The notes beneath the pieces were generated by a model. It ran no database searches. It was not told where the DNA came from and saw only the letters and a program-made list of their open reading frames with translations. Shown here piece by piece: positions 33,661 to 53,841 of a stretch of 64,000 bases of DNA. The DNA comes from an uncultured Tateyamaria sp. (GTDB lineage: Bacteria; Pseudomonadota; Alphaproteobacteria; Rhodobacterales; Rhodobacteraceae): the NCBI RefSeq assembly GCF_947504105.1, contig NZ_CANNGP010000006.1, positions 30,399 through 94,398 of the forward strand. Direction: 5' to 3'. Each line of letters opens with the position of its first letter. The first letter of the stretch is position 1. Both the position numbers and the translations under genes were made by a program.

Positions 33661-33694
33661 CTGCAGATTCCGCGATCTGCATGCTTTGCCCCTC

Positions 33695-33722
33695 TTGCAC
33701 CTTCTTGCGCCATCCCTATAAC
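33695..33722 (+). promoter_or_regulatory. sigma-70-like promoter candidate upstream of carB
   Basis: TTGCAC (33695-33700), N16, TATAAC (33717-33722), about 60 nt upstream of the carB ATG. Confidence 0.3.
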
Positions 33723-33780
33723 GCAGGACAATTTGCTCGCGCCCTGACGGCGCGGACTGAATCACATCCGGGGGGCCAAG

Positions 33781-37113: not shown

Positions 37114-37117
37114 CCCC

Positions 37118-37897: not shown

Positions 37898-37993
37898 CAA
37901 GACACTCACATCGTATCCAAACCGTATCATTGAGACATCTAGATGATCGAGCTTAAGGTGGGCTTAACTGCAACAGGGAGTGCTCACGTCCCC

Positions 37994-38021
37994 TTGCCCG
38001 GACCCGCACATTCAGTATAAC
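37994..38021 (+). promoter_or_regulatory. sigma-70-like promoter candidate for tRNA-Thr
   Basis: TTGCCC (37994-37999), N16, TATAAC (38016-38021), 12 nt upstream of the mature tRNA 5' end. Confidence 0.4.
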
Positions 38022-38033
38022 GCGCTCCATCAA

Positions 38034-38109
38034 GCCGCTGTAGCTCAGCTGGTAGAGCACGTCATTCGTAATGATGGGGTCGGGGGTTCGAGTCCCTTCA
38101 GCGGCACCA
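38034..38109 (+). tRNA. tRNA-Thr (anticodon CGU), CCA encoded
   Basis: GCCGCTG acceptor pairs with CAGCGGC. D arm GCTC-AGCTGGTA-GAGC. Anticodon stem CGTCA/TGATG with loop TT-CGT-AA. T arm GGGGG-TTCGAGT-CCCTT. Discriminator A plus CCA. 76 nt in total. Confidence 0.92.
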
Positions 38110-38153
38110 GGCACTTCAAAAAGCGTCCGGCAATCACGCGTTCACTGTTTTAT

Positions 38154-41100
38154 TCAGCTCAGTAGTGCCGCAAGGAAGAGCGTCAGATTTGCACCATCAC
38201 TGCCATCCGGATCTGCGACATCCGCAGTCTGAGGAATGACAGTCGCATCACTTGGACCATCCCAATTCGGTTCCAATCGCCCCAGACCGCCCTGTTCGAC
38301 AAGGTCGCGCACAAGCGAAAAGGCGGCCGCCGGGCGCTGGAGGCGGATAAAGTCGGACGTTGGCAAACCCATACCGTCGCGCTGGGCAATTCCCATGCGC
38401 GCTGCCATGGACAAGACACGCTGCGTACGCACCTTTGCACTGTAGCCTTGGGCAATGGCCTGATCGACAGAGGCAACGGCAGCACTTCCATCAAAGCTGA
38501 TCCCCCGACGCCGCATATGTGTGGCCCCCGTCAGCGAATACACGTCGTCCACCACAACCGCCGTTCCAGGCAAGCTGGCCGCTCGTCCCGGAAATGCATT
38601 CGGATGAAAGGCCGCAACGCGGTCCGGTGCGATGCCGGTCAATGCCTGGAGCGCTTCTGTCCGCAACTGGATTGACGCCCGCACATAGGGGGCTGGTTCG
38701 AAATCAGTTTCGCGCGGCGTACACACCACCACCTTCAGTCGTGGCTGCGCGGCCAGCCGATCGGCCAGTAGTTGTATCAGGTCGATCGCAACCGCATCCG
38801 AATTACCCCCCGCGTGCACCGTGCGAGCCAGCCCTGCGGTTTCGATGTAAACCAGTTCTTCAGCCTGATGGAACGCCCGGGCGAGTGACCACAGCGCGTC
38901 ACGCGCACCATGCACTGAAAGCTCGTACTCGCGGCGCAATTCGTTCAACAGACGGTTGCCATTGGTGACGTTCAATGTTGGTGCGGGCAGGCCAAGAGCG
39001 CTCGCAATGTCATTGATGACGGTCTGCAGGTCAATCGGTGTGTCTGAATCGAGCGGATTGCCCGGCGGCAGTAGCGAGAGCTCGGGCGTTTCCGCGACAG
39101 CTGCGATGGACTGTAGAAGTACGCCAGACGAGGTCGCGTCCGCAGGCGGATCCCCTGCCCGTTCCGGTAGGTCCATGTTGTCCCCGCCCGACATTGCAAG
39201 CCATCCGGGCGCTTGCGCGGGCGGCGGGCCACCCGGAAGAGGAATGAAGGGCTGTACTCTGCGCACGGCGTGACGGGCCAGATCGTAGGCAAGTGACCCC
39301 TCCACACGAACACCGGACGAATGCGTATCTGGACCGGGCGGGTTACCGGGATTTCCCTGACCGTGACTTGCTGACAGGGCGTCGCGCGACCACGAGGTTC
39401 CGCTCAGCACCCCGCTCCAATCCAGCCCCTCGCTGATTGCGGCCGAACCGATGCCGCTGACCACGACCGCTTCCAGCCGCCCCATGGTCGGGAGGCGCGG
39501 CCCGGTGCGTGGCACTGTTTCGGACGCAAGCGCGCGCGCTGCATCCACAGGTGTTCCGGCAGCGCCGTCATCCGGACCATCATCAGTGCCGAACAGCGGA
39601 ACAGGAGCGATGGATTTCACAGTGTCCGGTACCGCCGCCATTCGATCGGGCGCAGGCACAAAAAGGTCCACTGGCACAGTGGCAGGACCGGTAGCAATGG
39701 ACAGGGTGCGCGCGGCAAACAGCCTGCGGTTCTGAGTTCGGGGTGCAACGACCATGTCAAAGACCAGCGTAGCGGGATCGGGCTTGGGGTCACCAGGTTC
39801 GAGGCCCAACGGGTTGTGCACTAATATCTGTGTAGGTTGGGCCGCAACTGCGATCGCGGCCCCCCCATCTCCACGCTTGAACGAAGGGGTTTCGCCGATC
39901 GCGGGGATTGAGATGAAACGCTGATTGTAAAGTCGCACAGCGCTCCCGTCCGGGACAGCATCAGCTGCAAGCACGACCACCACATCTTCACCTGCTGTCC
40001 AAGTCGCCGTGGCACCAGCAAGAGGCGCTGGGTTTGCTCCGAATACGCCTGCACCTGCGCCAGTCGGGAAAGCAGGCCATCGGGCGGGGGCACCGGGTGC
40101 AGGTGGGACCGGCACACCGTCATCAAGCTCTGGTGCCGCCGCAAAAACCAGAGGGTTCCCCGCCGCACCGTCCATGCGTGTCAGCACCGCGTTGGACAGG
40201 GCCATCAGGTCAGGACCATCAGCCGCGTAATCAACAACAACCTCCGTCCGCACTTGCGGCTTCAGATCATCCGGCATGTCGCCGTCGTCGGCAGGGACCC
40301 CAGCCACGGCACTTGTGGTGCGGTTTCCCCGAAGGTGCCAATCAAGATCCACGGCAAAGGCCCGCAGAAACTGACGGGGCAACGCAATACCACCCGGAAG
40401 GCCCGGCTGTGCAAGTGGTCCCTGCGTCATTGTTCCGCCCGTGGCCCACCCCACCCGAATGCGGCCATCGGCATCGTCACCCGTCGCCGCAAGCACCTCG
40501 CTCGCCGCGAGTGTTACCATCCCGGACCCGTCAAGGTTGCCGGTGGGCGTGTCAGAGCCATCTTGCTTCTCAACGCCGACCCCCCCAAGGGCGGCGACAA
40601 ACGGGTTCCCGTGCAAGTCCACAACCTGCACAATGACGCCCGAGGCAAGCCCGGCAATGGTGGCAACGCCACCTGCTCCACCCGTTCCGCCACCGTCCGA
40701 AAAATCGAGGGCCGGGAAGGCTGTAATGAGGTCATCAAACAAGGCGGCCACCGACACGGGATCAATGATCAAACCGCGATGGTCATGAAAACTCATTGGC
40801 TCTGAACGACCAAGGTTTTCGCCGGGTTCGTATGTCTGTGGCGACCGATCCGGCACAGGTACGGCCCCGGCAAACACCAGTGTTTCAGGCACGGGGCGAT
40901 GATGCGGTGCAGGTGCAACCGCGTATCGCGCCATCAGGCTGGACAGTCGGGCAACAGCCTGCGGGTGGAGACGAAACGCGGCGACTGGGCCGGCGATGCC
41001 TGCCCCACTTACATCGCGAAACTCGTGACCTTGATCAAGATACTCCAACGTGCCACGAAATGGCGCCAAGGCATTGCCTGACGGTGTCAGCTGAAGGGTG

Positions 41101-41249
41101 GCGGCGTTGAACGTAGGGTCTGCGGCACCCCAAGCATTCGACAGGTGCGGCATCGTCAAACCAAGCGCATCCAGACCATTGTCTTGCAGAGCTTGTGCAG
41201 CAGCTTGCGGGGTTAGAGTGAAGACGTTCAACTGTGTCATGGCGGTCAA
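38154..41249 (-). CDS. giant-operon protein C (1031 aa), unknown function; C-terminal degenerate PLD-like layout
   Basis: Uninterrupted 3.1 kb ORF. Start is TTG 41249 (TTGA overlap with the upstream stop) or ATG 41240 (5 nt after it). Gly/Ala/Pro/Asp-rich but with normal hydrophobic content. No signal peptide, and no P-loop seen by eye. Confidence 0.85.
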   Translation of the reverse strand: MTAMTQLNVFTLTPQAAAQALQDNGLDALGLTMPHLSNAWGAADPTFNAATLQLTPSGNALAPFRGTLEYLDQGHEFRDVSGAGIAGPVAAFRLHPQAVARLSSLMARYAVAPAPHHRPVPETLVFAGAVPVPDRSPQTYEPGENLGRSEPMSFHDHRGLIIDPVSVAALFDDLITAFPALDFSDGGGTGGAGGVATIAGLASGVIVQVVDLHGNPFVAALGGVGVEKQDGSDTPTGNLDGSGMVTLAASEVLAATGDDADGRIRVGWATGGTMTQGPLAQPGLPGGIALPRQFLRAFAVDLDWHLRGNRTTSAVAGVPADDGDMPDDLKPQVRTEVVVDYAADGPDLMALSNAVLTRMDGAAGNPLVFAAAPELDDGVPVPPAPGAPARWPAFPTGAGAGVFGANPAPLAGATATWTAGEDVVVVLAADAVPDGSAVRLYNQRFISIPAIGETPSFKRGDGGAAIAVAAQPTQILVHNPLGLEPGDPKPDPATLVFDMVVAPRTQNRRLFAARTLSIATGPATVPVDLFVPAPDRMAAVPDTVKSIAPVPLFGTDDGPDDGAAGTPVDAARALASETVPRTGPRLPTMGRLEAVVVSGIGSAAISEGLDWSGVLSGTSWSRDALSASHGQGNPGNPPGPDTHSSGVRVEGSLAYDLARHAVRRVQPFIPLPGGPPPAQAPGWLAMSGGDNMDLPERAGDPPADATSSGVLLQSIAAVAETPELSLLPPGNPLDSDTPIDLQTVINDIASALGLPAPTLNVTNGNRLLNELRREYELSVHGARDALWSLARAFHQAEELVYIETAGLARTVHAGGNSDAVAIDLIQLLADRLAAQPRLKVVVCTPRETDFEPAPYVRASIQLRTEALQALTGIAPDRVAAFHPNAFPGRAASLPGTAVVVDDVYSLTGATHMRRRGISFDGSAAVASVDQAIAQGYSAKVRTQRVLSMAARMGIAQRDGMGLPTSDFIRLQRPAAAFSLVRDLVEQGGLGRLEPNWDGPSDATVIPQTADVADPDGSDGANLTLFLAALLS

Positions 41250-44200
41250 TCCCGGTCAGAACTTGAGACGCGTCGCCCGTCCGGCGCTATGATCTCAAAC
41301 GTGATGCTGCGGATGTCCTTGCGGGCAAACACGGTGATCCCGGTGCGGGCGCCAACCTTCTGACGGTTTGCGACGTAAAGCGGTGCCTGCGCGCCAGACG
41401 TGGACGGCAGACCACCGATGGGCACCTCATCCAGCGGCGCTTCGTATACCAGGTTCCGCCCATCGGTCTTGAACTGAGACGCTGGCCGGTTCGTTCCAAG
41501 ATCCAGAATCGGGCCCGGACGTGGTTCGAACGGTCGTGGAATGCGGAAGCCCGGAGTCGGCTCTGGTGTGTCATCAGGCAGTCTGCCAAAACGGCCCAGT
41601 CCGCCGGGCAACTCGCGCAGATCGCGGAACCGATCCGTTCCAAGGATACCACCGCCACCCGATGTCGGCCGAATAACGATCCGCACGCGGTGCTCCAGCG
41701 GTCCTGCCACCGGCGCATCGGTGGTCACGAAATACACAGTGCCCCGGCCTGATATGCTGAAACTGTCGACTTCGCTAAGATCAGGTAGCGGAACAATCGA
41801 CCCTTCGCCAAAGCTGACGGCACGTTCAGTCACCCGTCCGAGAGGATCAGTCATCCGCAGAAGTATGCTGCCTGCGGGCAGCGTATTCGGTCGCCGTACG
41901 AACAAGCGATAGTTGCGATCAAGCCCGTCCGGCACGCGCCAAAGCGCAGTTTGCGTCATCTCGGGCACTTCGGGAACAAGTTCGAGCGGCGTGGCACCGG
42001 GCTGCTTTTGGCCCGGGTTCAAAGGATCTTCGCCAGCATCCGGCGCGATTGTGTAGTAATGGAGATGCGGTTCGCCCTCCAAACGCACCTCGGCTGACAG
42101 GGTATGCGGGCCAAGCGTGGTGGGTGTGATCGGCGCATTGGAGGCCATCGATACAAGTATGTCACCCAGATTGCCCCCGCCTGGCCATGTCAGGATTGGC
42201 GGTGTGAGCTGTGGCGGATCGTTCGGTGGGATTACAACCGGAACCGCCGGAGATGACCGCCCGCGACCCTTGCGGACGCCGCGTTGTGCGTCGTCCAACC
42301 CCCACGCAATCGCCCGATACCATTGCGGCTTCCATGAGCCGCCCGGAGCGTCCTCACCGGTGATGCCCGTGATCCACGTTTCGGTGCCATTCGTGTCAGT
42401 CCCCACCATCCAATCGGCAGTGCTACCAGTAAGCGACACCATTGGCGGTCCCATGCTGTCAATCTGGCGTGCCGCATCCGCGACCCGCGTGCGATAGAGA
42501 TCGATACCCCCTGGACGCGCACCTGAACTTGCCCGCGTTTCGACCCGAATACGAGCGGCAAAACCTCCGGGTGTTTCGATCCTTTGCGCCTCGATCGTTG
42601 GAGGGGCCGGTGTTGCGATGCGTGGTGCCACAAAGGGAACCATCGCTTTGTCTGCGTCTGAGCCAGCGGGCCACGGACCTTCGACACCGCCAGCGCTGAC
42701 CGGGATCACCACAAAGAGGTGAATAGCCTGCGATCCACGTGGCAAGGCAACATCCAGATTGGTACCGGTCAGCAAAGTCTTGTTCACGCGGTTGAAATCC
42801 CGGCGGTCGGGGGAAGCAGTGAAAGCATTCTTGAGCGTGGTGAGGCGCGTGCTGAGGGTCACACCCGGCAGTGCTTCGGGTATGTCACGGGCCGCCAGCA
42901 TCCGGGTTTCAGTGCTTTGATACAGCACGTAGCCTTCTGCACCGGGCACGGATTGCCATTCAACAATCGCATGGCATTCGCCCTTCGCATCCGGCAGGCT
43001 GGCCAGTCGTACAACATCGATCACCTGCGTTGGTCGCGAGCGTGGATCAGATGCGTAGGTCAGTTTGCTGCGCGGTCCAAAGCTACCGACACGGCCCGGT
43101 GCTAACGCCTCGCGCAGCCGCGCCCGCATCGCCAGTCCGACATGCCGCGTACCATTGTAGTCGAGCGAGAATCCCGGGATCGTCACGCGGTACCTGCGCG
43201 CGTGCCCCTGGCTGGAAAATCCCGGTGCGGCGACCTCTGCATCGCCTTGGGCGTCTAAGCTGATGACGTTGGCGGCCCCGTCAAGACCCGGAACGCTGGG
43301 ATCGTTGAGAGAAGGCACATCACCCGCGAAGGTGATGAACACGTTCTGTGCCGCACCGCCGATGGTTTTTTGCAACCCACCTGGTAAACCACCCGGCTCG
43401 GGATCGTGGCGTGTTGCCGCCGCAAACAAACGCCCGACAAAATCGACCCGGGCGACTGAACGCACACGCCAATCCACGACAAATTCAACAACAAGGTCCG
43501 CCGGGCACACTGTACCGCTGCCAGTATCAATGGGCCGCAGTTCCGCTGATATGATGTTGACGGTGTCAGGTTCAGGTTGCGTGGTCGAAAACGGCTGCGT
43601 GGACCACGGGCTCCAGATCCCAAAAAGGTTCTGGTTGGCCAAACCATATTGTGCGCTAACCGAGCCCGGCGCGTTCGGAATGACAAAGCCAGTATCCGAT
43701 GCCGATTGCCGAGGATACTCCGGATCCTGGCGGTTCTCGTTGTTTCCAATGGGCATAAGACCCTTGCCGGACGGGCGTCGTTCCATCAACGGGGTGGCAG
43801 GGCCGACAACACCCCCCTCGGCACGTCCAAACGCAAAGCTCGAGACAGAGTTGAAGTTGTCGAGAGGCAGGCGTTCCCAACTTGCACGGCTGGTGGCGGT
43901 CCAATCCCCATCTGGCGCGACCGGTCTTTGATGAGCAAGGAAATGCAGGCGCAGATCGGTGGGTGGAATGGGGCGGGTCACACGCCGCGGGCGGGGAATG
44001 ATCGTGGCCAGTTCCAGCGGTTCGCTTTGCCCGTCCAGCCCACGATGCCAAAGGCCGGTCACCATGAAATCATAGTCGGCCATGTCCGGCGAACCGAGCA
44101 AGCTTATTGCGCCAAGGTTGATCGGGTCCAGATCAACGTAAGGATAGCCCGTACCGAACCCCATCAGCACGGATTGCATCGGATCGGTTGCAACAGCCAT

Positions 44201-45223
44201 CTGCATCAACTTGACAGACGATATCCGCGCCTCGCCATCATCCGCGGGCATCGTATCACCATTCGCGTTTTGCGGTGGGTTGATGGCGTGGCGGTCCAGA
44301 ACGTCGGCCTGCTGGTTTGGCGGCGCCTGCATGGCCGTGTGCAACATATCGAGCAGCGTCTTGTTGGCATCGTCGATCATACCATCAAGGTCCGGCACCT
44401 CCCATGCCGGGGCAGTGTCGCCCGTGGGAAAGGTTGGATACCAACCAAACGGGTTAATTCCGCGCGAAAATCGCTGTTTTGCAGCCTCTTGCGCCGGTAA
44501 TTCCGCCCCGACAAGACCCTGATCCTTGCCATGCACTTGACCGTCGAGATCGCTGAACTCACTTGGATCAACGGGCAATCCAACCGTTTCAATCAGCTCC
44601 CATCCGTCGACCTTTTCCGCCTGCGACAAGCCTTCGCCAAATGCAGACACCTCCTGACCGTCCGCGCCGCCGATCAGAACGGCCGTAATGAATGGCGCAT
44701 AAAAGCGATACGTGCGCTCACCATTTGCTGGAATGTTCAGGCTTTCGAACCCGAGCATGTTTTCGAACCCGACGCCGTTCGCCAAGGGCACGATTGTAAC
44801 GCCCAATGCGGGGCCCGTGCTTTTGACCCGGACGGTAATCGACATGACCGGTTCGGTGAATTGATGCACCGTGCCCAATGGAGGAAGTGTGATCCTGTTT
44901 GTCAGCACTGGTTCAGGGCTCTGCAACAATGGGAAAGCGACCCGACGCCAGACCTTGAACGGTTCAGAAGGTAAACCGACACCGGGGTTGACCTGCCAAC
45001 GCAGAAACACCGCCAGAACACGATTGCCAAAGTCCTTGAGGTCAAGGCCCTGCGGCGCGGAGCGCGTGGGCCGGAATGTCTCGTGCGTGGCGAAGGAGTT
45101 AACAGATGGCCCAGAAGTGCCTGTTACCACCTCATTTTCATCCGCAAAGGGACGCAGCAAAGAATCCGCAGTGATCATCGCACCCTGACCACGGAACAAA
45201 TAGGGGCTGAATGTGCGGTTCAT
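41246..45223 (-). CDS. giant-operon protein B (1325 aa), unknown function; contains Fn3-like segment
   Basis: Uninterrupted 4.0 kb ORF. The AGGAGG RBS overlaps the TAG stop of the upstream ORF (GATTAGGAGGGACCGATG, 45223-45240). Fn3-type signature ECHAIVEWQSVPGAEGYVLYQS at aa 749-770. Confidence 0.85.
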   Translation of the reverse strand: MNRTFSPYLFRGQGAMITADSLLRPFADENEVVTGTSGPSVNSFATHETFRPTRSAPQGLDLKDFGNRVLAVFLRWQVNPGVGLPSEPFKVWRRVAFPLLQSPEPVLTNRITLPPLGTVHQFTEPVMSITVRVKSTGPALGVTIVPLANGVGFENMLGFESLNIPANGERTYRFYAPFITAVLIGGADGQEVSAFGEGLSQAEKVDGWELIETVGLPVDPSEFSDLDGQVHGKDQGLVGAELPAQEAAKQRFSRGINPFGWYPTFPTGDTAPAWEVPDLDGMIDDANKTLLDMLHTAMQAPPNQQADVLDRHAINPPQNANGDTMPADDGEARISSVKLMQMAVATDPMQSVLMGFGTGYPYVDLDPINLGAISLLGSPDMADYDFMVTGLWHRGLDGQSEPLELATIIPRPRRVTRPIPPTDLRLHFLAHQRPVAPDGDWTATSRASWERLPLDNFNSVSSFAFGRAEGGVVGPATPLMERRPSGKGLMPIGNNENRQDPEYPRQSASDTGFVIPNAPGSVSAQYGLANQNLFGIWSPWSTQPFSTTQPEPDTVNIISAELRPIDTGSGTVCPADLVVEFVVDWRVRSVARVDFVGRLFAAATRHDPEPGGLPGGLQKTIGGAAQNVFITFAGDVPSLNDPSVPGLDGAANVISLDAQGDAEVAAPGFSSQGHARRYRVTIPGFSLDYNGTRHVGLAMRARLREALAPGRVGSFGPRSKLTYASDPRSRPTQVIDVVRLASLPDAKGECHAIVEWQSVPGAEGYVLYQSTETRMLAARDIPEALPGVTLSTRLTTLKNAFTASPDRRDFNRVNKTLLTGTNLDVALPRGSQAIHLFVVIPVSAGGVEGPWPAGSDADKAMVPFVAPRIATPAPPTIEAQRIETPGGFAARIRVETRASSGARPGGIDLYRTRVADAARQIDSMGPPMVSLTGSTADWMVGTDTNGTETWITGITGEDAPGGSWKPQWYRAIAWGLDDAQRGVRKGRGRSSPAVPVVIPPNDPPQLTPPILTWPGGGNLGDILVSMASNAPITPTTLGPHTLSAEVRLEGEPHLHYYTIAPDAGEDPLNPGQKQPGATPLELVPEVPEMTQTALWRVPDGLDRNYRLFVRRPNTLPAGSILLRMTDPLGRVTERAVSFGEGSIVPLPDLSEVDSFSISGRGTVYFVTTDAPVAGPLEHRVRIVIRPTSGGGGILGTDRFRDLRELPGGLGRFGRLPDDTPEPTPGFRIPRPFEPRPGPILDLGTNRPASQFKTDGRNLVYEAPLDEVPIGGLPSTSGAQAPLYVANRQKVGARTGITVFARKDIRSITFEIIAPDGRRVSSSDRD

Positions 45224-45232
45224 CGGTCCCTC

Positions 45233-48200
45233 CTAATCCTCTTCCCAAGGTGCGCGGGTCAGATCGGTAGCAACGATCTCGATCTCAACATCGCTGGCGA
45301 ACCCTTCGTCGAGATACGGCTCGGCAAAGGCCTTGCGCACCATGTTCAGCCGCAAGCTCTGGCCCCGCGCACCCGGTTTGAGAGTGATCAAGGCGCGCTG
45401 CGTGCCGGGTGAAAACAGAATCTTGTCCACGAGATCATCCGAAGAGGCGCTTTCCGCGATGGACAGCCACGGCGTCGCTTCCAGCTTCCAACGGGTTGTT
45501 GCAATGCCATCGGGATCTTCTTCTGTTACTTCCTGAGGCAGCGGACGTGTCCGGTGCATCGGCTCGCTCGCGTCCAGAATGATTGCTGCCGGTTGCGGAT
45601 CGGCCGCCGGGTTCGCTTGTTCCCAGAAGACAATCACGCGAGCCGCTCCGGGTACATCCATCGGTTCCAGCCCCGCGCCGATCAGTTCTTCGTCCAGTTC
45701 TGGCCCCATGGTCGTGAGCAGGGTTTGCCCCGGCACGATTCCATCAAGCGCACGACCCGCAAAACGTGGATTGTTGCCAATTGCCTGCAACATGCCCGCT
45801 TCGACAAATCTGTGCTCTGTCACCGTTGCCTGAACATCGCGGGCAAAATCCTCGGTCAGACCGAATTGCCCGGTCGAGAAGTTCAGCCGGTACACCCGAT
45901 CGCCGACTGTGCCCGCATCCGCACCGATATCGACGGACTCAATGTTCATGACATAGTCGGTGTAGGGATCAAGCGGGATGGGCAGCTTGACCATCGAATG
46001 GCGCACCCTTTCCCCATCCACCGGAACGCAGGGGCCGGTTTCCGTGATCACATCCTGTAGCACGGCTTCGAACGGCGACAGGACGTGAGCCTGAACGTTT
46101 TCAAGCGTTCCAGCGTCAATCGGCACAGGGTGTGGCAGACCGGGTTCGTCCACTTGCTTGAACGATGCCGCCTTGAGCCGCACCCGCAATTCCTTGCCAT
46201 AGGCTGCGAACAGTTGATCCACGGCGTTCGTTGCAAAGACGACGCGGGGTGCATCAAGGCCGAACACATGTGCTTCTCCCTCGGCAGGCAAGGTGCAAAG
46301 AATCCATGGATCAAGCCGCTTGGGCGCCTCTGCATCTGTGCGGAACCAGAACTCCGCCGTCTGCTCGGCCGCGTCGCTTTCCGCACCTTCATCGTCACGG
46401 ATGCGCACATCACTTCGGCACGTTACGCGGTAGACGGAGTCGGGGAACAACAGCGCGACATCGGCGCTTTGTGGCCCTAGGAATTCTTCGATTGCATCGC
46501 GATCTTTTTGAATTTCCGTCGTGTCATATTCTTCGCGCTCAGCCTCACTTAGGCGGGTCAACTCGATCGCGCCGACATAAAACGGACGACCTTGCTGTTC
46601 GAAGCGGCTGGCTTGCTTCTCATCCAGATACAAAACACCAATCCGGAACCGATCCGTTCCTTCTGGCGGTTCCAGCTTAACACAGACCGGTTGGCGTGGT
46701 GACAGGCGCGATTGGCCGTAAAGAACGGTGTGGTACACATCCTCGAACCATGGGCCATTCACATCTGCCCAGCGCGGCGGGACGCTGGTTACGGACAGCA
46801 GATCAGACACCCGTACAGGACGTACGTCCAGGACGTTGCCGCCGTCATCAAGGAAGTGGATCATCAGGCCGCGGCCTGTTCCCTGATCATCGTTCAAAAG
46901 ACCGCGGTTGACCCACATCAGCACATGGCCCGCGAGGATGGCACCGCTGTCGACCTCAATGACGTCCGACAATGGCCCGTGTTTGACGCCCATTTCGGAC
47001 AGTCTGTCGGCGACCTCACCCGCGCGGCTGACATCGCCAAAGATCACCGGTTCTCCGGTATCCCAAAACGGTGACGCCAGCACGCGCCCCGGGCATTGCG
47101 GCTCATCTACCTGAGGCCCGCCGGGCACATGGGTAGCATGTGTTGCGGGGCCGTTCGTAACACTCAGCAACGTGCTGCGGGTGATCGATATCCCTTGTGC
47201 CACACGTCGTGCAGCTTCGCCCAAGTCAAGACGTTCGGCAGTCAGGGTGTCTACTGTGGCTGCAGAGCCAAAGGACCCGATCACCGCACGGTCCACCAAG
47301 GCGCGCTCGGCCAGACGACGCGTCCGCCCGGTCAAGGTCGCGGTCGCAACATCGCCATCGCTTGTCGCCCCACGGTTCAATGTACCGGCGCCCAGCGACA
47401 AAGCGGGGTTCAGGCGGCGCGTTGTTATGCCTGTATTCAGGTCCAATTCCGCCGGATCGAGCGCGTCAGACAAATTACGCAGACGACCCGTGTCTATGGT
47501 CAAATCCAGCGGACGTCCGGTGATATCACGGCCGACAAAACCGCGCGTTGGTGGGACGTCATCCTGAAACTCAGGTGCGCAATCCACAAGCCCGCCCTCG
47601 ACGACCGCCGGAACGATGCCGCGCAACTGGTCCAAACTCGGGTCCCCGGACCGCCACGTTTCATGCACATGCAGCGCCCGGTCTGCATCCGCTGACCGGG
47701 TTGCATCTTCTGGATCAGGCCACGCAATACCGGTCAGGTCCCATCCGCTCGGTGATGGCCCAAGCCGTTCATTGGAAAATGTCCAGAGCACAGGCGCTGC
47801 CGGCGCGGCAGGGTTACAGACCCGCCCCCAACGCTCACGAATGGTTTCTTCCAGGATCTCAGACCGTTCCAGCGCCTTGGGCGCCGGGTTCGGTGTCCAG
47901 TTGAGCAGTGACAGATGTGTTGTCAAGTTTTCACCATCCGGCGGCTCAAGCGTCCACCAGGTTGATGGCGTGTTGCCCGGCATCACGGCGTCAGCTGATC
48001 CGACACGTTCAAGCGTGACATCGGTCATCGTGTAGCAATAGGCAAAGTCACCCCGCCCGATGAACCCACCCGCTGGCGCGCCCGTGCTTCCACCCGGTGC
48101 GTCGCCCAGCGGCATGATTCCACCGTCCAGCGCAGGCATCGCAAGGCTCAGCACCGGGATTGCATCGATTGGGACGACAGGCATTTCGCTGTCGGCGGGT

Positions 48201-51200
48201 TGGCTGTCACCACGCGGCATATCACCGATCTTGCTGTCGATGCCGCGATCCACGCCCGTCCCCTCGGCCAACGCCGGCGTACGGCTGACCAGTACTGCGC
48301 CAGCAAACAAGTCGGGCGGTGGCGGCAGGATTTTCGAATCCTCGCCAATATGGAAATCGACACAGCCCTTGATCGAGAAGAAGAACAGGTCAAGCTCGCC
48401 ACAGACCTCACCATCAATGCGGCTGACCTGCGTACCGTCAGCACGTTCGCCAACCTGCGCTGACAGGGCAGCGGATGCCGACAAGCTGATGATGAACAGC
48501 TTTAGCTCGCCCCGCAGATACAACAATCCGCCAACATAGAAAGGTTGGAACCCGATGATGGCGTTAAAGCCCGCAGTCACCTTCAGATACAAGTTGATCG
48601 AGGTGTTGCCCCAGATGATCGACACCTCAAGGCCTGCAGCGATGCCAAACCCGTTGACCTGGCTGAGAGCAGGGAGGTTATTGCCGGGCGGCTGGTAGCT
48701 GGGAATGCCATGTCCAGAGAACATGACATATCCGGACCCATCAAAGGCCCCGAGGATCGACGCACGAATGGGACCCGGCAGCGGATTGCCTTGCAGGTCA
48801 CTGCCCTCGAAACTGCCCAGATAGATATGCCAGAACTTACCGTCCTTGAGGTTGAAGAATGCCTCGATCGGGATCTTGATCTCGACCAGCGGGTCGATGG
48901 TGAAATCAATGGAAATCCCGATGGTCAGCGTGCCGCGGCCAAAGTCGAGATCGATGACACAAAGGAACGTGCCTTCTGCATTCTTGTCCTTGAGTGCAGG
49001 CAGCACAGCCAAGAGGTTCGCCTTAACCACCAGCAGAACGCGCGGGCCGGGCAGCTCCAGCATGAACATGCCCTTGACGTTGAAAATGATCGGGCTGCCC
49101 ATTGTGCCCAGCGTAATGCCGACACCGAAGGCCCAGCTATCTACGTTGGTTTTCCAAGCTTGCAGGTTCGTGGGGTCCCCGTTGGCGCGGTTCTTGAGCC
49201 ATTCCAGTGCAGGGGTGAGAGATGTGATGCCGTCTTCGTCGCGCGCGTAGTGCATGGCGAACAGGCCGACAAAGCCATAAATGCCGAACCCTGACTGGGC
49301 GAGTGGGATGGCGACAGGCAACTCGACTTCCAATGCAACGGCGACGCCTGTTGCCGGGCCACCGGACGCTTCGGATATTTGCGCAACAGCAATCTGCGCG
49401 GCGATGCGCATCTTGACCGGGATCAGCCTAACGTCGATCCCGCCCTTGATCTCGGTCCCCTCAGCCCCGTCGTTGAACTCCATGTAGCCGGAGCCTTCCA
49501 GTACACCCGGTACTTTCAGGCCCGCGCCGAACGCCGTTAGTTCTGGCGCGCCCAGCGGATCTATCGGCATGCGCACGCGGGCGCGGTCCACTGAGACAAC
49601 CCCAAGATCGATGGCAAAACCAAGATCGATCTCGAAACTCAGCGGGTTGGTGCGCGCGATGCGAGCGCCAAGCACCTGAAGGATCTGACCCAGCGGATCG
49701 GCTACACGGATTGCTCCGGGGCCGGACACATCGATGGAATATCCCTTGGAGCTGTCAAAGACAGGCCGAAACTCGAACTTTCCGCCGCCGCCCGGTGGTT
49801 CACCAAAGCTCAGGCCGATGGCCTTGTACCGCACGGCCAAGGGCGTATCGCGCGGGATTTCCAACAGCGGATCACCGCCGCCGAAGGCAATGTTGACCGA
49901 AACCGCAGTCTCAACATCAAACAGGAAGCTCATCTGCCATCTGTCGCCTTGTCGGCGGAACGCCCCTTCGCCACCAAACAGAATGACACGTTCGATGTTG
50001 AAAAAACCCGCTGATGCGAGGCCAGTGGCCACTCCGATGACCGCCGCCGACGCCACAATCGGTGCCACACCGCCATCAGCCGGGTTGGCAGGCGCAATCT
50101 CGGACAACAGCGGGGTGAAGATGGTCGTCATCCCCAATAGGTCACGCCCGAAGTTCTTAGGTTCCAGCGCCTGCCCGGGCAGTTGCCCAGTCATCACAAG
50201 CCCATCTTTGTCCGCCGGATCCGCCCCAATATACAGCTTCACCTCGTCAGTCTGGCTGGCTGGGTCAGTCTGGTAGAGGAACAGGAAGTCGGTGATGCCA
50301 TCGGCCGGGTTATTGCCAACGCCGCGTATATCGTCGGGCGTTTCCCCTGCCCCGCCACGCTGCAGCGCGCCCTCGATACCGGTTTGGAAATCGATCTGGC
50401 CTGACAGCTCCAAGGCCACGAACTGGTTTCGAATGATCCGAACCTTCAATCGGGCCGAACGGAACCAGTCCGGCGTCGCCGGCTCACTGGGTGGGGTGTC
50501 TGTGACCTCGGGCGGGGGCGGTGGCTCTGGTACATCGGGGCGGCGGACATCTCCGGTGATCACTTCGCCCGGAAGATTAACAAGGAACCCGGTGATTTCG
50601 GCGTTCCACCACTGTGAGCGGTTTGGCTCACCTTGGGTCTTCCAGACATTCTCTCGCCAACTGATTGGGAAGCTGGCACCGCTGGGTTCATCCACACCAG
50701 TGAAATCAGGGTTAAAGCGGTCATTCAAAAGCGCACGCAACCCCTCGGCCCGACGCTGGCTTAGCAGCCAGTTATACTGCGCCTTTCCGTCATCTCCGTC
50801 ATAGCTGGCTGTGCCTGTAATCGTGATGTCGCGGGGATTGATGCGTGACAGAATGTCGGCATAAGCCGTGTCAAAGGGATCGGCGGTCGTGCGCCAATCC
50901 GAATCCTCGTCCGCAATAAGGGCCTGATCATCCCGGATGTTCCCGGCAACCTTCGAATAGCTGAGCGGGTCATTCTTGGGCGGCGTGTCGTAACGGAAGT
51001 ACGCCGTCAAAGACGAGATGTTGTCATCTGGTGTGCGTGCCTCGATCGTGCGGCTTTGGCCACCGGAAACATCCACATCGACAGAGCTGCCAACACTGGC
51101 TGGTCCTCCGTCAATGACCCATTCGGTATTTGGCGGAACAGTCGCGCCGGCCAGACTGACGCGCACTGTTCCCGCCTGCCGGTTGTCATTCAGCAGCACC

Positions 51201-52588
51201 AGCGGTGGTGCTGGCAGGGATTGCGCTTCTCGGGTGATCGACGTCGTTGTCAAGATCGCCGCCAGCGGCTCACCCGGGGGCGGGGCCACCGCAGGAGGCG
51301 CACGCCGCGCTGCTGTGATGGTCAGCGTCGCCTGCTTCGACGGTGCACTGGCATCGGTCGCAGTGATCGTGATGGTGCGTGTGCCGGTGGCGGGTGTTGT
51401 AACGTCATGTACGACGCCGGCTTGCGCGCCGCTGCCTTGGTCGACCGTTACGCTGTAGGGCGCGCGACCACCGCGCACATCAACCGCAAGTCGCGTGGCT
51501 TCAGGCAAGGCAGCTGTTGCAGCCCCCGGGCTTGTTCTTGTGATGCCGATGCCCTGCCGATCACTGGTGAAGAAATTCGCGCCTATGACAAGGTCACCGC
51601 TGCCCTGGTTGATCACCGCAACATCGAAGTCGCCCGTGACCCCATTCGAACCGCCAAGCCCGATCAACAGGTTTTCGACGCCGGCATTGACTGCAAAATC
51701 TTCGGCGCCGTTCGGGGCAAAGAAGATACGGATTTCGGGCAGGTAAAGTCCGGTCCACGCCTCATCAAACCCAAATTGCGACAGGATTTCGGGTGGCGTA
51801 TAGCCGTCTGACAGATCAAGGTACGCCGAGCGGAACCCGAACCCGACCACACGTCCCAGCCCGATAAAGGCATGGCTGGGCTCCATCGTGACAAGCTCTG
51901 CTGCCGCCAATGCGCCGGGGTCATCGAGGCCTGACGCACCAAGAGACACCAGGCAAACCTGCACCTGCGCGTTGGCGTCCGAGCCCTGGGTTAAGCGAAG
52001 CTTGATCTTGGGCAGGTGGAACACCACGTCCGTGCGCGTGGTATGTGGAATGAGCAACCCGTCTGGCCGCATCTCTGCCGGTTGCAGGAACGGTGGCCGC
52101 AACTCGATGCCCGCAAGGATCAGATCCAGCGTGAAGCCTGTATTCGGGTAGTCAGATGGCGGTGGGTCAATCGGCGGTGTGTCCAGTGCGTCAAGAATGT
52201 CGCGCAACGGTTGGAAATCTGCATCGCCACCCGGGACGGTCGCAACACCATTTGCAATGATTGTGCCCGCGACGCGCGGCACAGTCATCGAGAATTCAAC
52301 GCGGGTGTCGGTGATGTCGAGCCAGGGTTCGGACCTGTCGGGTTGGTTACGAGGGTGCCCTTCTGCATTGGCGGCACCAGCAGTCAGCGTGCCCGTCGAT
52401 GGATCAAAGCTGGGTAGATCAACATCACCGGAAAACCGCGCTACGCCGCGGACCACCGTCCCGCCGGGTCCTGCCGCGGTTTCATAACCTTCGACATAGA
52501 TGACTGACAGCACTGCGTGCCATGTGGTCGCCTCGCCCCGGAGAATGTAGGGTCTGAACAAATCCACCAAAGAAAGATCGAACGACAT
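45233..52588 (-). CDS. giant-operon protein A (2451 aa), unknown function; OmpA/MotB-like peptidoglycan-binding signature, Ig-like segment, Pro-rich linker, Gly/hydrophobic beta-rich core
   Basis: Uninterrupted 7.36 kb ORF. ATG 52588 with AGGAG 10 nt upstream. ITITGTASYDGDDGKAQYNWLLSQRRAEGLRALL at aa 588-621 matches the GhTD..G...YN..LS.RRA core of OmpA C-terminal-like domains. No signal peptide. Confidence 0.85.
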   Translation of the reverse strand: MSFDLSLVDLFRPYILRGEATTWHAVLSVIYVEGYETAAGPGGTVVRGVARFSGDVDLPSFDPSTGTLTAGAANAEGHPRNQPDRSEPWLDITDTRVEFSMTVPRVAGTIIANGVATVPGGDADFQPLRDILDALDTPPIDPPPSDYPNTGFTLDLILAGIELRPPFLQPAEMRPDGLLIPHTTRTDVVFHLPKIKLRLTQGSDANAQVQVCLVSLGASGLDDPGALAAAELVTMEPSHAFIGLGRVVGFGFRSAYLDLSDGYTPPEILSQFGFDEAWTGLYLPEIRIFFAPNGAEDFAVNAGVENLLIGLGGSNGVTGDFDVAVINQGSGDLVIGANFFTSDRQGIGITRTSPGAATAALPEATRLAVDVRGGRAPYSVTVDQGSGAQAGVVHDVTTPATGTRTITITATDASAPSKQATLTITAARRAPPAVAPPPGEPLAAILTTTSITREAQSLPAPPLVLLNDNRQAGTVRVSLAGATVPPNTEWVIDGGPASVGSSVDVDVSGGQSRTIEARTPDDNISSLTAYFRYDTPPKNDPLSYSKVAGNIRDDQALIADEDSDWRTTADPFDTAYADILSRINPRDITITGTASYDGDDGKAQYNWLLSQRRAEGLRALLNDRFNPDFTGVDEPSGASFPISWRENVWKTQGEPNRSQWWNAEITGFLVNLPGEVITGDVRRPDVPEPPPPPEVTDTPPSEPATPDWFRSARLKVRIIRNQFVALELSGQIDFQTGIEGALQRGGAGETPDDIRGVGNNPADGITDFLFLYQTDPASQTDEVKLYIGADPADKDGLVMTGQLPGQALEPKNFGRDLLGMTTIFTPLLSEIAPANPADGGVAPIVASAAVIGVATGLASAGFFNIERVILFGGEGAFRRQGDRWQMSFLFDVETAVSVNIAFGGGDPLLEIPRDTPLAVRYKAIGLSFGEPPGGGGKFEFRPVFDSSKGYSIDVSGPGAIRVADPLGQILQVLGARIARTNPLSFEIDLGFAIDLGVVSVDRARVRMPIDPLGAPELTAFGAGLKVPGVLEGSGYMEFNDGAEGTEIKGGIDVRLIPVKMRIAAQIAVAQISEASGGPATGVAVALEVELPVAIPLAQSGFGIYGFVGLFAMHYARDEDGITSLTPALEWLKNRANGDPTNLQAWKTNVDSWAFGVGITLGTMGSPIIFNVKGMFMLELPGPRVLLVVKANLLAVLPALKDKNAEGTFLCVIDLDFGRGTLTIGISIDFTIDPLVEIKIPIEAFFNLKDGKFWHIYLGSFEGSDLQGNPLPGPIRASILGAFDGSGYVMFSGHGIPSYQPPGNNLPALSQVNGFGIAAGLEVSIIWGNTSINLYLKVTAGFNAIIGFQPFYVGGLLYLRGELKLFIISLSASAALSAQVGERADGTQVSRIDGEVCGELDLFFFSIKGCVDFHIGEDSKILPPPPDLFAGAVLVSRTPALAEGTGVDRGIDSKIGDMPRGDSQPADSEMPVVPIDAIPVLSLAMPALDGGIMPLGDAPGGSTGAPAGGFIGRGDFAYCYTMTDVTLERVGSADAVMPGNTPSTWWTLEPPDGENLTTHLSLLNWTPNPAPKALERSEILEETIRERWGRVCNPAAPAAPVLWTFSNERLGPSPSGWDLTGIAWPDPEDATRSADADRALHVHETWRSGDPSLDQLRGIVPAVVEGGLVDCAPEFQDDVPPTRGFVGRDITGRPLDLTIDTGRLRNLSDALDPAELDLNTGITTRRLNPALSLGAGTLNRGATSDGDVATATLTGRTRRLAERALVDRAVIGSFGSAATVDTLTAERLDLGEAARRVAQGISITRSTLLSVTNGPATHATHVPGGPQVDEPQCPGRVLASPFWDTGEPVIFGDVSRAGEVADRLSEMGVKHGPLSDVIEVDSGAILAGHVLMWVNRGLLNDDQGTGRGLMIHFLDDGGNVLDVRPVRVSDLLSVTSVPPRWADVNGPWFEDVYHTVLYGQSRLSPRQPVCVKLEPPEGTDRFRIGVLYLDEKQASRFEQQGRPFYVGAIELTRLSEAEREEYDTTEIQKDRDAIEEFLGPQSADVALLFPDSVYRVTCRSDVRIRDDEGAESDAAEQTAEFWFRTDAEAPKRLDPWILCTLPAEGEAHVFGLDAPRVVFATNAVDQLFAAYGKELRVRLKAASFKQVDEPGLPHPVPIDAGTLENVQAHVLSPFEAVLQDVITETGPCVPVDGERVRHSMVKLPIPLDPYTDYVMNIESVDIGADAGTVGDRVYRLNFSTGQFGLTEDFARDVQATVTEHRFVEAGMLQAIGNNPRFAGRALDGIVPGQTLLTTMGPELDEELIGAGLEPMDVPGAARVIVFWEQANPAADPQPAAIILDASEPMHRTRPLPQEVTEEDPDGIATTRWKLEATPWLSIAESASSDDLVDKILFSPGTQRALITLKPGARGQSLRLNMVRKAFAEPYLDEGFASDVEIEIVATDLTRAPWEED

Positions 52589-52653
52589 GAGTCAAAGACT
52601 CCTGCAAAATATATTTGCGAAAAAGCGGCGACAAAAGAAATAAAACTAGAAAA

Positions 52654-52682
52654 ATTCAACCATTGATGGGAATTTCTGTCAA
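52654..52682 (-). promoter_or_regulatory. sigma-70-like promoter candidate for the giant operon
   Basis: The minus strand reads TTGACA (52682-52677), N17, TTGAAT (52659-52654). It sits inside a 35%-GC segment about 65 nt upstream of the ORF A ATG. Confidence 0.3.
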
Positions 52683-53109
52683 ACACGATAAGCGTAATTC
52701 CGCCTGCATCAATAGCTCCGTTGACTTGTTCACCGGTGACCACGCACGGAAATTGGTTCCTTTAGAAACGGTTTCAGCACGGCTGCCGCCATCTCAGGTT
52801 TCTTGAGAGCGTTATTAGATGAAAGTGGCTATTTTATAATGACTTAGTCATAGCCCGCCGGTGCGTCGTCAGATGGTATAAAGTGCCACAAAGCCCATGA
52901 TTGCGAGCTGCATCTTTGTAAAGATCGTAACCCATAGCAGCAGGCTTGTTCGCCTCTACATACCGCCGGGATGCTCTGTGTAAACTTCTACAAAGTGTCT
53001 CTTCAGTATTTCCGCCCGCACATCCCAGCTCACGATTTACGTGTGAAGCGATCATATGAAGCATGTCGTTGCGTATGCTCCGTCTTGCAGCAGTGCAACA
53101 GCTCTTGCG

Positions 53110-53841
53110 CTAACTCTTCAGCATTGCAATTGCCGCCCGAATGGAGTCAGCCAAAGCGGGTTTGACCCGGTCATACCGTGAGCTTGGAACCGGAACAGAC
53201 ACAGCAAAGATATCGCCGACCTGATCCGCCACTGCAAACCCCATCGCGCAAATTCCATCGGTGTGTTCGTTCTCGTCACAGGCCAGATCACCCGCCCGGA
53301 TTGCGTCAATCCCATCCACAATGTCGGACAAGGGTGGCGCGTAAGGACCACGTGAACGATGTTCAGCCCGGATCAGAGAGAGTGCCCGCTCAGGTCGCAT
53401 GCAAGCCAAAGCGGCCCGCCCGTTTGCCGTCGTGGTTAGGGGAAAGTGTTCTCCGATCCGCGACACCGTGCGCAGGCGATGGCTGCCTTCTATCTGATCA
53501 ACAAACAACATCTGAGCCCCCTCCAGAGTGGCCAGATCAACAGTCTCACCCGTTTCATCCGACAGCCGCTCCATTATAGGACGCAAACGGGCACGCATGT
53601 CCGATGATACTGCGTGGGCGAGGCTTTGAATCTCGCGCCCGAGCCTGATTCCTCCATCCCCCCGTTCGGTGGAAACAAACCCTTCGGCCACAAGCGCTGC
53701 AACGATGCGCTGTACCGTAGAGCGGGGCAGTTGGGCCCCTTTCGCAATCTGGCCGAGGCTTAACCCGTCTGTCTCACGACCTAACAAACGCAGGATTTCG
53801 GCAGCCCGGGAAATTACCTGAATACCTTGATTTTTTGACAT
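53110..53841 (-). CDS. IclR family transcriptional regulator
   Basis: 243 aa. N-terminal wHTH (VISRAAEILRLLGRETDGLSLGQIAKGAQLPRSTVQRIVAALVAEGFV) plus a C-terminal IclR effector domain. Divergent from the catabolic operon. Confidence 0.8.
   Translation of the reverse strand: MSKNQGIQVISRAAEILRLLGRETDGLSLGQIAKGAQLPRSTVQRIVAALVAEGFVSTERGDGGIRLGREIQSLAHAVSSDMRARLRPIMERLSDETGETVDLATLEGAQMLFVDQIEGSHRLRTVSRIGEHFPLTTTANGRAALACMRPERALSLIRAEHRSRGPYAPPLSDIVDGIDAIRAGDLACDENEHTDGICAMGFAVADQVGDIFAVSVPVPSSRYDRVKPALADSIRAAIAMLKS

Follow-up and report, generated by a model that had tools for sequence, protein, structure and literature searches.

Tc (ABC) toxins consist of three co-transcribed giants, TcA (~2500 amino acids (aa)), TcB (~1470 aa) and TcC (~970 aa), none of which has a signal peptide, and their largest protein carries immunoglobulin-like (Ig-like) binding domains together with a membrane-interacting element. 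In the OmpA, OprF and Deinococcus SlpA tethers, a wall-binding module and a linker are joined to a large antiparallel beta structure. Zorya is an accessory multi-gene system in which ZorB, with an OmpA-like peptidoglycan-binding domain, works with nuclease effectors. Here we describe a locus that resembles each of these in part. It lies in a stretch of 64,000 nucleotides (nt) from an uncultured Tateyamaria sp. (RefSeq assembly GCF_947504105.1, contig NZ_CANNGP010000006.1, positions 30,399 to 94,398), referred to below as the window. Gene A (45233–52588, minus strand), the first of the module, is an intact open reading frame (ORF) encoding a giant DUF6603-type protein of 2451 aa; it is followed by its conserved partner gene B (41246–45223, minus strand; 1325 aa) and by gene C (38154–41249, minus strand; 1031 aa). 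All coordinates given for parts of these genes also refer to the minus strand. Protein A is not a stand-alone protein: its gene opens an A-B-C operon that is conserved, and the last of the three proteins has a predicted phospholipase D (PLD) fold.

The resemblance to Tc toxins is by analogy, in that A-B-C likewise comprises three giants of similar sizes without signal peptides, and that the largest of them appears to combine Ig-like domains with a membrane-interacting element. However, the membrane element of A would be a beta structure, not an alpha-helical channel, and C has the predicted PLD fold in place of an RHS cocoon with a variable toxin tip. Homology to Tc toxins, considered on account of the 2451/1325/1031-aa pattern, was rejected for want of Pfam or Foldseek support: the Tc domains (VRP1, TcA_TcB_BD, TcB, SpvB, TcdB mid and RHS) had no Pfam match in A, B or C, and no Tc structure was present in the top 50 Foldseek matches listed for A aa 340–1480 or for C. 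The tethers share with A the order of wall-binding module, linker and large antiparallel beta structure, and SlpA is among the top Foldseek matches of the A core, but the TM-scores are 0.14–0.18, A has no signal peptide and its family also occurs in hosts without an outer membrane. The likeness to Zorya is conceptual (an accessory multi-gene system with an OmpA-like wall-binding domain and a nuclease/phosphodiesterase-family partner); A-B-C differs in having no MotAB-like motor or transmembrane (TM) helices, and in sizes and folds that are unrelated.

Other assignments were tried and rejected. A, B and C were all without a match in PADLOC-DB v2 at E ≤ 0.1, which removed a known defence system. 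There was no significant PHROGs match and a tblastn search of 50,697 phage records was empty, which removed a phage or prophage origin. A type I secretion system (T1SS) adhesin, an RTX protein or an autotransporter found no support in Pfam domains or in neighbouring transporters. Full-text literature searches on DUF6603, PF20248 and family members found no paper; databases list the family as a DUF and nothing more, and none of its proteins has a solved structure. We rate the A-B-C system as lying outside every known kind, and we infer its function.

The module spans ~14.4 kb of coding sequence, with three proteins and 4,800 residues, and its genes abut or overlap one another. Gene B starts 9 nt past the stop codon of A; gene C, which would encode 1028 aa if started at the ATG at 41240, overlaps or abuts gene B. 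To survey the module, one genome per species was scanned, which gave 77 loci with an A homologue. The order A-B-C was found in 59 of these, 15 were interrupted by contig ends and three had A-B with no C within 6.6 kb; gene B followed A in every locus not interrupted by a contig end. No fourth conserved gene was found, all-against-all clustering of the flanking ORFs giving no family present in more than 10 of ~70 loci. None of A, B and C has a signal peptide.

The hosts of the module are Alpha-, Beta- and Gammaproteobacteria, Acidobacteria, Nitrospirota, Gemmatimonadetes, Planctomycetes, Cyanobacteria, Abditibacteriota, Myxococcota, Chloroflexi, Firmicutes and Actinobacteria, giving monoderms as well as diderms and more than ten phyla overall. 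The distribution is patchy and cross-phylum, with some copies on plasmids. One metagenome-assembled genome (MAG), P01_B01_bin.64, holds two complete and divergent A-B-C copies, L006 (JBCCHJ010000002) and L038 (JBCCHJ010000008), whose A proteins are 70% and 39% identical, respectively, to that of the window.

The ORF of gene A is uninterrupted over 2451 codons and begins at the first possible start codon after the upstream stop. The N-terminus, MSFDLSLVDLFRPYILRGE, is acidic and conserved among homologues, and the start is therefore not an annotation artefact. The protein is 100% identical to a hypothetical protein of uncultured Tateyamaria sp., and its full-length orthologues have 2330–2490 aa and are 41–88% identical. 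Its composition is very acidic (net charge −134), and Gly, Ala, Leu and Pro are abundant. Searches of NCBIfam, PHROGs and PADLOC returned nothing for A, and Pfam gave only a sub-threshold OmpA match and a meaningless He_PIG match. A prior sequence-only reading had proposed that A combines an OmpA-like, peptidoglycan-binding signature with a hydrophobic beta-rich block and yet has no export signal. The peptide strings it listed were all found at the A residues given, its coordinates convert correctly (aa 586–622 to nt 50723–50833 and aa 800–1400 to nt 48389–50191) and its domain order was correct. The missing export signal was borne out when A was inspected by eye and by Kyte–Doolittle hydropathy: the first 800 aa contain no hydrophobic segment, the sole TM-like 19-mer within residues 1–1400 lies at aa ~840–858, and A does not show the Sec signal peptide expected of Bam-assembled outer-membrane beta-barrel proteins.

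To examine the domain structure, A aa 340–1480 were modelled with AlphaFold2 (AF2) on a 62-sequence alignment, giving a mean predicted local distance difference test (pLDDT) score of 80. The model begins with two Ig-like beta-sandwich domains at aa ~350–530 (50984–51541), with strands at pLDDT 83–94; the single Ig-like region previously placed at aa 365–427 thus becomes a pair of predicted sandwiches, at aa ~350–428 and ~445–530, in AF2. In a viral structure library, Foldseek matched this region to the Ig folds of Hoc and decoration proteins with probability 0.99–1.0, and the Pfam He_PIG match here reached an E-value of only 0.95. Beyond the Ig-like matches, the viral library gave only generic matches to the A model. 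Downstream of the next domain, the proline-rich linker at aa 683–706 (50471–50542) is present as described from the sequence, and is disordered in the AF2 model (pLDDT <50).

Between the Ig-like pair and the linker lies an OmpA_C-like domain with the variant motif ITITGTASYDG...YNWLLSQRRA (aa ~540–685; 50534–50971). A direct Pfam check of the earlier OmpA assignment failed, as PF00691 scored 16.2 bits (E 0.014) on aa 576–622, below the gathering cut-off of 27.2 bits, and orthologue P0004 scored 14.3 bits; remote homology was recovered with family profiles. When a profile of the whole A family was compared with the PDB, 13 of 15 matches were OmpA_C-like and all aligned to one stretch. With a domain-only profile built from 17 diverse orthologues, 35 of 39 matches were OmpA_C-like, the best being 6u83 (3.7e-5), OprF (5.5e-5) and Pal (8.7e-5 to 3.5e-4), followed at E-values up to 1e-3 by RmpM, YfiB, TssL, YiaD, PomB and OmpA. 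The AF2 model of aa 541–682 is alpha/beta with pLDDT >90, ITITG forming a strand and YNWLLSQRRAEGLRALL opening a long helix. Profile comparison thus identifies aa ~540–685 as a genuine but divergent OmpA_C-like fold, a remote homologue.

Like the OmpA_C-like domains of Pal, OprF, RmpM, YfiB, MotB/PomB and TssL (PF00691), that of A has the alpha/beta fold, the YN..LS.RRA helix and the invariant Arg. In Pal and AbOmpA structures, the Asp of the (G)HTD motif and the Arg of RRA contact the diaminopimelate of peptidoglycan. The family motif of A is GxASxE...YNxxL[SA]xRR, in which the RRA arginine (R613) is invariant, the HTD-Asp position is an invariant Ser (S595) and a near-invariant Glu or Asp stands two residues after it; the closest solved structure, 6u83, likewise has GYAS. 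With an invariant Ser where the HTD Asp would stand, though the RRA Arg is invariant, peptidoglycan binding by this domain is no more than plausible. The domain of A also differs from its relatives in sitting within a signal-less protein of 2451 aa that is kept in monoderm hosts. Every type I (A-B-C) orthologue tested has the motif, including those of Paenibacillus, Arthrobacter, Mycobacterium, Micromonospora, Streptosporangiales, Chloroflexi and cyanobacteria. The earlier argument that a peptidoglycan-binding module implies a periplasmic location is weakened by this, since the same domain and architecture occur in Paenibacillus, Arthrobacter, Mycobacterium, Micromonospora and Chloroflexi, without a classical periplasm or Bam, and a periplasmic location of A is not secure.

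The largest recognisable part of A is a DUF6603-like core of amphipathic beta-strands at aa ~709–1420 (48329–50461). In the AF2 model, aa ~709–1416 contain ~27 strands of 8–18 residues, mostly 11–18, with pLDDT mostly 80–93. A short mixed region after the proline linker ends in a helix, and a near-continuous meander of long antiparallel strands then runs from aa ~863 to ~1416. The strands are amphipathic in 23 of 27 cases, the family-averaged Kyte–Doolittle values being +2.2 for the hydrophobic face and −0.8 for the polar face. These predictions agree with the beta-rich hydrophobic block that had been proposed at aa 800–1400, and the AlphaFold check recommended with that proposal gave no beta-solenoid of any known family. 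That the core may insert into membranes is a hypothesis.

The core corresponds at the sequence level to Pfam DUF6603 (PF20248, gathering score 27 bits), as judged through its relatives. Orthologue P0061, which is 43% identical to A, matched PF20248 with an E-value of 2e-11 (43.6 bits) over profile positions 21–247, and more distant type II relatives (described below) scored 25.9–35.2 bits; the A protein of the window had no match at E ≤ 1. Orthologues from Marinobacter and Thauera carry the NCBI name 'DUF6603 domain-containing protein', and precomputed PF20248 matches exist for many orthologues. The Pfam model differs from the A core in spanning only part of its ~700 aa. A phmmer search with aa 700–1430 against 1.84 billion representatives gave 892 clusters at E ≤ 1e-3, 296 of them at E ≤ 1e-30, and most were proteins of 2200–2500 aa with a similarly placed core. 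Foldseek matches of the core model in the PDB were the beta-belt of ApoB100 (top by E-value, 1e-4), the 30-strand SlpA barrel, the PapC/FimD ushers, LptD and porins, with E-values of 1e-4 to 1e-2, TM-scores of 0.1–0.3 and root-mean-square deviations of 16–39 Å. We read these as the mark of a very large predicted antiparallel meander sheet and not of homology to any one match.

The helix that precedes the meander coincides with a hydrophobic Ala/Gly/Val-rich segment at aa ~842–860 (50009–50065; Kyte–Doolittle 19-mer mean 1.9), predicted at pLDDT 56–71. Its hydrophobicity is ≥1.6 in 27 of 30 orthologues despite varying sequence. The suggestion that this helix is conserved in type II relatives was dropped, as their hydrophobic peaks fall inside the DUF6603 match, in another part of the core. 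Towards the end of the core, Cys1396 and Cys1409 (48362–48403) lie in one beta-hairpin and are invariant in both the 30- and the 62-sequence sets; A has six invariant Cys altogether. The model places the two in register on the opposite strands of the hairpin (model residues 1057 + 1070 = 1062 + 1065), which suggests a disulfide. The pair is kept in a variant from Paracoccus and not in type II relatives.

In a 30-sequence alignment, aa 1–345 (51554–52588) are the most conserved region of A, with dense invariant columns, and the C-terminal ~1000 aa (aa 1421–2451; 45233–48328) include a variable stretch at aa ~1680–1830; Pfam and PDB searches with either region returned no match. The C-terminal part is homologous to that of a Haloferax A-like protein (hhalign probability 99.9%). 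At the extreme C-terminus (45233–45250), directly before gene B, the sequence APWEE is invariant in 30 of 30 aligned orthologues and could be a docking or recognition tail. The loci without C, namely L052, L069 (Arthrobacter) and L082 (uncultured Actinomycetes), are all actinobacterial, and the first ~100–150 aa of their A proteins are shorter and divergent; C may therefore dock on the N-terminus of A. An initial view that actinobacterial A lacks its first 150 aa was wrong, the N-terminus being present in this shorter and divergent form.

Neither partner of A is recognised by sequence searches. Gene B had no match in Pfam, NCBIfam, PADLOC or PDB sequences, one weak PHROGs match (E 0.06) and a weak FN3-like PDB match at its N-terminus (E 0.11). 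Single-sequence and whole-profile PDB searches of A, B and C gave nothing beyond this and the OmpA-like region of A. Gene C was without a match in Pfam (no PLDc), NCBIfam, PHROGs, PADLOC and PDB sequences, although a few of its homologues are labelled PLD-like by the source databases. Its AF2 model is compact, with a pLDDT of 87 and a predicted template modelling (pTM) score of 0.90. All of its top 50 Foldseek matches in the PDB (50/50) were PLD-superfamily structures, at E-values of 6.3e-11 to 1.5e-5, among them plant PLDalpha (6e-11), human PLD1/PLD2, the Pseudomonas type VI secretion system (T6SS) effector PldA (1e-8), Streptomyces PLD, PLD3, PLD4 and vaccinia F13. Modelling therefore assigns gene C a two-lobed PLD fold.

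Matches of the C model to two-lobed PLD enzymes (plant PLDalpha, human PLD1/2, PldA/Tle5a and Streptomyces PLD) have E-values of 6e-11 to 4e-7 with probability 1.0 over 500–740 columns. In contrast to these enzymes, C has ~1030 aa with large insertions, has no Pfam PLDc match and has degenerate HKD motifs. At HKD2, Arg stands where the His would be in 57 of 64 sequences (the window has Pro) and Thr where the Lys would be in 58 of 64; any H.K....[DEN] string was found in only two of 64 members, located elsewhere than HKD2. An intact HKD1 was not found in gene C, and the candidate 'SFHDxRGLIID' (C aa 153–163) was dropped, as its modelled secondary structure is unlike the HKD strand-turn-strand. 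The equivalent of the PLD C-lobe, C aa ~780–1000 (38250–38912), contains the invariant residues H882, R889, D901, D902, G908, H911 and R913–R915. Sequence comparison thus suggests that C is a pseudo-enzyme or, alternatively, an enzyme in which the active site is rearranged.

Sister modules were found by tblastn against plasmids and by a homologue search seeded with a Mycetohabitans protein. In the type II order, a B-like protein (1320–1560 aa) is followed by a canonical PLDc_2 enzyme (460–710 aa, with HSKxxxxD) and a DUF6603 giant (1880–2950 aa), the last often bearing ConA-like DUF1080, TSP_C or LamG domains. Type II hosts are Mycetohabitans, Desulfosporosinus orientis, a 5.8-Mb bacterial genome and the haloarchaeon Salinirubellus. 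A variant on Paracoccus pAMI4 has A-like and B-like proteins, and a metagenomic contig encodes an A-like protein of 1759 aa and, after it, a protein of 1060 aa that is B-like in size. The Haloferax mediterranei plasmid pHME322 (L085, 9805–22918) carries an A-like (1858 aa) and a B-like gene (1370 aa), then, in the place of the PLD-like protein, a gene for a 1142-aa Baseplate_J protein (Pfam E 2e-12), with a MoxR ATPase gene just downstream. Across the sister modules, hhalign probabilities were 99.7–100% for the A-like proteins, 97–99% for the B-like proteins (57% for Mycetohabitans) and 96–98% for C against PLD; C and the canonical PLDc_2 partners of type II modules aligned with a probability of 97.7% (E 2e-12). 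None of the sister-module proteins has a signal peptide. Profile alignments thus identify the DUF6603 giant together with its B-type partner as the constant core, to which a PLD-family protein is usually added. Within the Mycetohabitans DUF6603 coding sequence, ARAGORN called a 94-nt 'tRNA-Gly' (L084, 13023–13116), which is probably a false positive.

In the window, the module is flanked on one side by an IclR regulator and metabolic genes and on the other by tRNA-Thr and carB. The tRNA-Thr(CGU) gene (38034–38109, plus strand) is of interest as context only; it lies 45 bp past the stop of gene C (38154). Integration of an island at this tRNA was rejected: the tRNA 3′ end is not repeated elsewhere in the window, which leaves no clear att site, and the module is not bounded by att-like direct repeats. 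Of 48 type I loci scanned, at least 4 have a tRNA gene no more than 1.5 kb from the module. In two other Tateyamaria genomes (L007 and L009), synteny with the window covers the upstream flank and the whole module at ~80% identity and halts exactly at the end of C. Module and upstream flank diverge at an equal rate within Tateyamaria (~80% nucleotide identity), which points to stable inheritance and not to recent acquisition. A 520-bp intergenic region (52589–53109) between gene A and the IclR-family gene (53110–53841, minus strand) is unusually A+T-rich, and a scan of 37800–53300 with the sigma-70 consensus found no promoter-like site, where 4.3 would be expected by chance. On the strands opposite carB and genes A–C there are long ORFs (33280–35148 and 36514–37197, minus strand, and many plus-strand ones inside 38154–52588; up to 622 aa) that had no family matches; the ~60% G+C content most likely produces them as artefacts.

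Further afield, Pfam searches of the 130 ORFs nearest to 34 type I loci found ordinary, unrelated metabolic and regulatory genes, and no baseplate parts (Baseplate_J, gp25, VgrG, tube or sheath) were present in the window module or in the 34 flank sets. In a PADLOC search of the same 130 ORFs, ~12–14 (~10%) gave strong matches, a raw rate without a background rate. These included LmuA (two ORFs, 1e-68), Avs1a (2.5e-46), DRT (two ORFs, 1e-37), mad3 (two ORFs, 1e-52), CARF/SAVED and a TnpB/Cas12f-like protein. Some module loci adjoin integrase, SSB and ArdC genes, and others insertion sequence (IS) elements and toxin-antitoxin genes.

The reading that we tentatively prefer, and hold to be possible, is that A-B-C forms a wall-binding, membrane- or lipid-engaging, toxin-like complex that acts on the cell envelope and not in soluble cytoplasmic metabolism. 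Protein A would be the large scaffold subunit of a self-contained system. It may grip a cell-wall polymer through its tandem Ig-like and OmpA_C-like domains, in place of which paralogous families carry ConA-like lectin domains, and may sit on or in a lipid bilayer or surface through the hydrophobic helix and the one-sided sheet of ~27 strands. It would thereby place the PLD-fold subunit C at phospholipid, whose counterpart in distant relatives is a canonical HKD PLD-family enzyme, with B as a putative structural adaptor. Since A, B and C are all without a signal peptide, such a complex would have to leave the producer by lysis or another route; by analogy with Tc toxins and tailocins, it could exit in this way and act as a toxin-like or competition factor. 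The analysis shows the gene module, how it is distributed, the folds of its domains and the amphipathicity of the strands; where the proteins localise, which ligand they bind, whether they engage lipid and whether they are catalytic or toxic are the parts of this scheme that we infer.

Several lines of evidence argue for this scheme. A self-contained system is supported by the A-B-C order in 59 of 77 loci, by genes that abut or overlap and by flanks in which no further gene family recurs; the patchy, cross-phylum spread, with plasmid copies, and the stable inheritance in Tateyamaria also count in its favour. OmpA_C-like, Ig-like and lectin modules are usually found outside the cytoplasm, which supports an extracytoplasmic site of action, and the exact hairpin register of Cys1396 and Cys1409, which would fit a disulfide, is consistent with such a site. 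Lipid or membrane engagement is supported by the amphipathicity of 23 of the 27 core strands, by the conserved hydrophobicity of the helix and by the best matches of the core being membrane beta-barrels (SlpA, ushers, LptD and porins) and the ApoB100 belt. The structures nearest to C are lipid-hydrolysing PLDs, including PldA, which supports a lipid role for C, and the pairing with PLD is supported by the type II modules of Mycetohabitans, Desulfosporosinus and the haloarchaeon, in which the DUF6603 giant accompanies a canonical PLDc_2 enzyme.

Other observations weigh against it. Inspection and hydropathy found no signal peptide in A, with neither a hydrophobic h-region nor a twin-arginine motif, and flank clustering and Pfam searches of the flanks found no secretion genes or lysis cassette with the module. 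No immunity-like small gene is present in the module, and most hosts are bacteria that live freely in soil or the sea and are not known for a toxin phenotype. The OmpA-like domain does not have the canonical peptidoglycan-contacting Asp, and the Foldseek TM-scores of the A core are only 0.1–0.3. An enzymatic payload is doubtful in the family of the window because C is without the canonical HKD His and Lys. Finally, the ~10% of nearest-neighbour ORFs that match defence models, again a raw rate, favours an anti-phage role. A bolder form of the proposal, which we regard as unlikely, is that DUF6603 giants are a new class of signal-less, chaperone-independent machines whose beta-sheets, built from ~27 amphipathic strands of one chain, insert into membranes or wrap lipid and which, with a B adaptor, deliver or place a PLD-family subunit at a target membrane; they would be a toxin/translocation or envelope-sensing immune system found in >10 bacterial phyla and in haloarchaea, and unrelated to Tc toxins, contact-dependent inhibition (CDI), T6SS effectors or catalogued defence.

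The defence neighbours bear on the main alternative, a serious rival, that A-B-C is an intracellular anti-phage or abortive-infection system, with A and B as sensors or scaffolds and the PLD protein as an infection-triggered effector (nuclease or phospholipase). Such a system would account for the patchy, horizontally transferred, cross-phylum distribution that includes plasmids, and for a compact three-gene operon of cytoplasmic-looking sequences without signal peptides. It is also in keeping with the ~12–14 strong PADLOC matches among 130 ORFs near 34 modules, with the loci next to integrase, SSB and ArdC or to IS elements and toxin-antitoxin genes, with the MAG that has two divergent copies, and with the fact that PLD-family effectors are common in defence systems. 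However, the ~10% figure is a raw rate without background and most neighbours are ordinary metabolic or regulatory genes; A, B and C themselves match no PADLOC model, and NTPase, helicase, STAND and nuclease motifs were not found in them. Cytoplasmic sensors would be unusual in combining a probable disulfide with domains of the wall-binding, lectin and Ig-like kinds, and in the C family the catalytic HKD residues of the supposed effector are gone. We consider the anti-phage explanation somewhat doubtful. Quite unlikely, in our view, is a device by which the producer handles lipid in its own envelope, with the A sheet as a lipid groove or belt (ApoB/LLTP or AsmA/TamB-like) anchored to the wall by the OmpA-like domain, and C as a head-group binder or divergent transferase. 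ApoB100 is the top Foldseek match by E-value (1e-4), the A strands have one hydrophobic face, the PLD fold of C is nearest to lipid enzymes, and the OmpA-like domain with its proline-rich linker recalls the OmpA/SlpA tethers; but AsmA, TamB and N-terminal LptD structures were not among the Foldseek matches of the A core, and the proteins have neither a membrane anchor nor an export signal. The module is, moreover, accessory and sporadic in its distribution and not lineage-wide, and one architecture is found across monoderms, diderms and (as relatives) archaea with very different envelopes.

The same resemblance to OmpA and SlpA, in the OmpA_C-like domain, proline linker and large beta-sheet, underlies the narrow form of the sequence-only reading, in which A is a resident periplasmic or outer-membrane protein that binds its own peptidoglycan and whose beta block translocates itself into the outer membrane. 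The conserved Cys pair would fit an oxidising compartment. This is nevertheless improbable given that A has no signal peptide, that orthologues of the same architecture are found in monoderm Firmicutes, Actinobacteria and Chloroflexi without Bam, that the net charge of A is −134 and ~1700 residues of non-barrel domains flank the core on both sides, and that A is always co-encoded with two more signal-less giants. The Baseplate_J protein (Pfam E 2e-12) encoded by the third gene on Haloferax mediterranei pHME322 raises the further idea of a module left over from, or derived from, the baseplate of a phage tail or contractile-injection system. The C family has no similarity to that protein, however, PHROGs and the 50,697 phage records gave no match, no tube, sheath or spike genes are nearby and the viral-structure Foldseek search of A gave Ig-like matches only, which leaves a baseplate origin with very little in its favour.

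The operon context, with its PLD-fold third protein, changes what needs explaining about A. The A-B-C giants are intact and ordered across many bacterial phyla, with sister modules in haloarchaea, and the core alone is present in ~900 clusters at 50% identity. What can be recognised in them (a domain of wall-binding type, the lectin domains of relatives, a very large sheet that is hydrophobic on one side and the PLD-fold partner) points to a role in envelope or membrane biology, for proteins that have no recognisable export route. The A-B-C question could be tested in culturable hosts: Roseobacter denitrificans, Pseudomonas fluorescens, Chromobacterium, Marinobacter and Paenibacillus. If the modules prove to be a defence system, they would be among the largest known and of a new type; if they prove to be a toxin or translocation device, they would represent a new architecture for crossing or attacking membranes.

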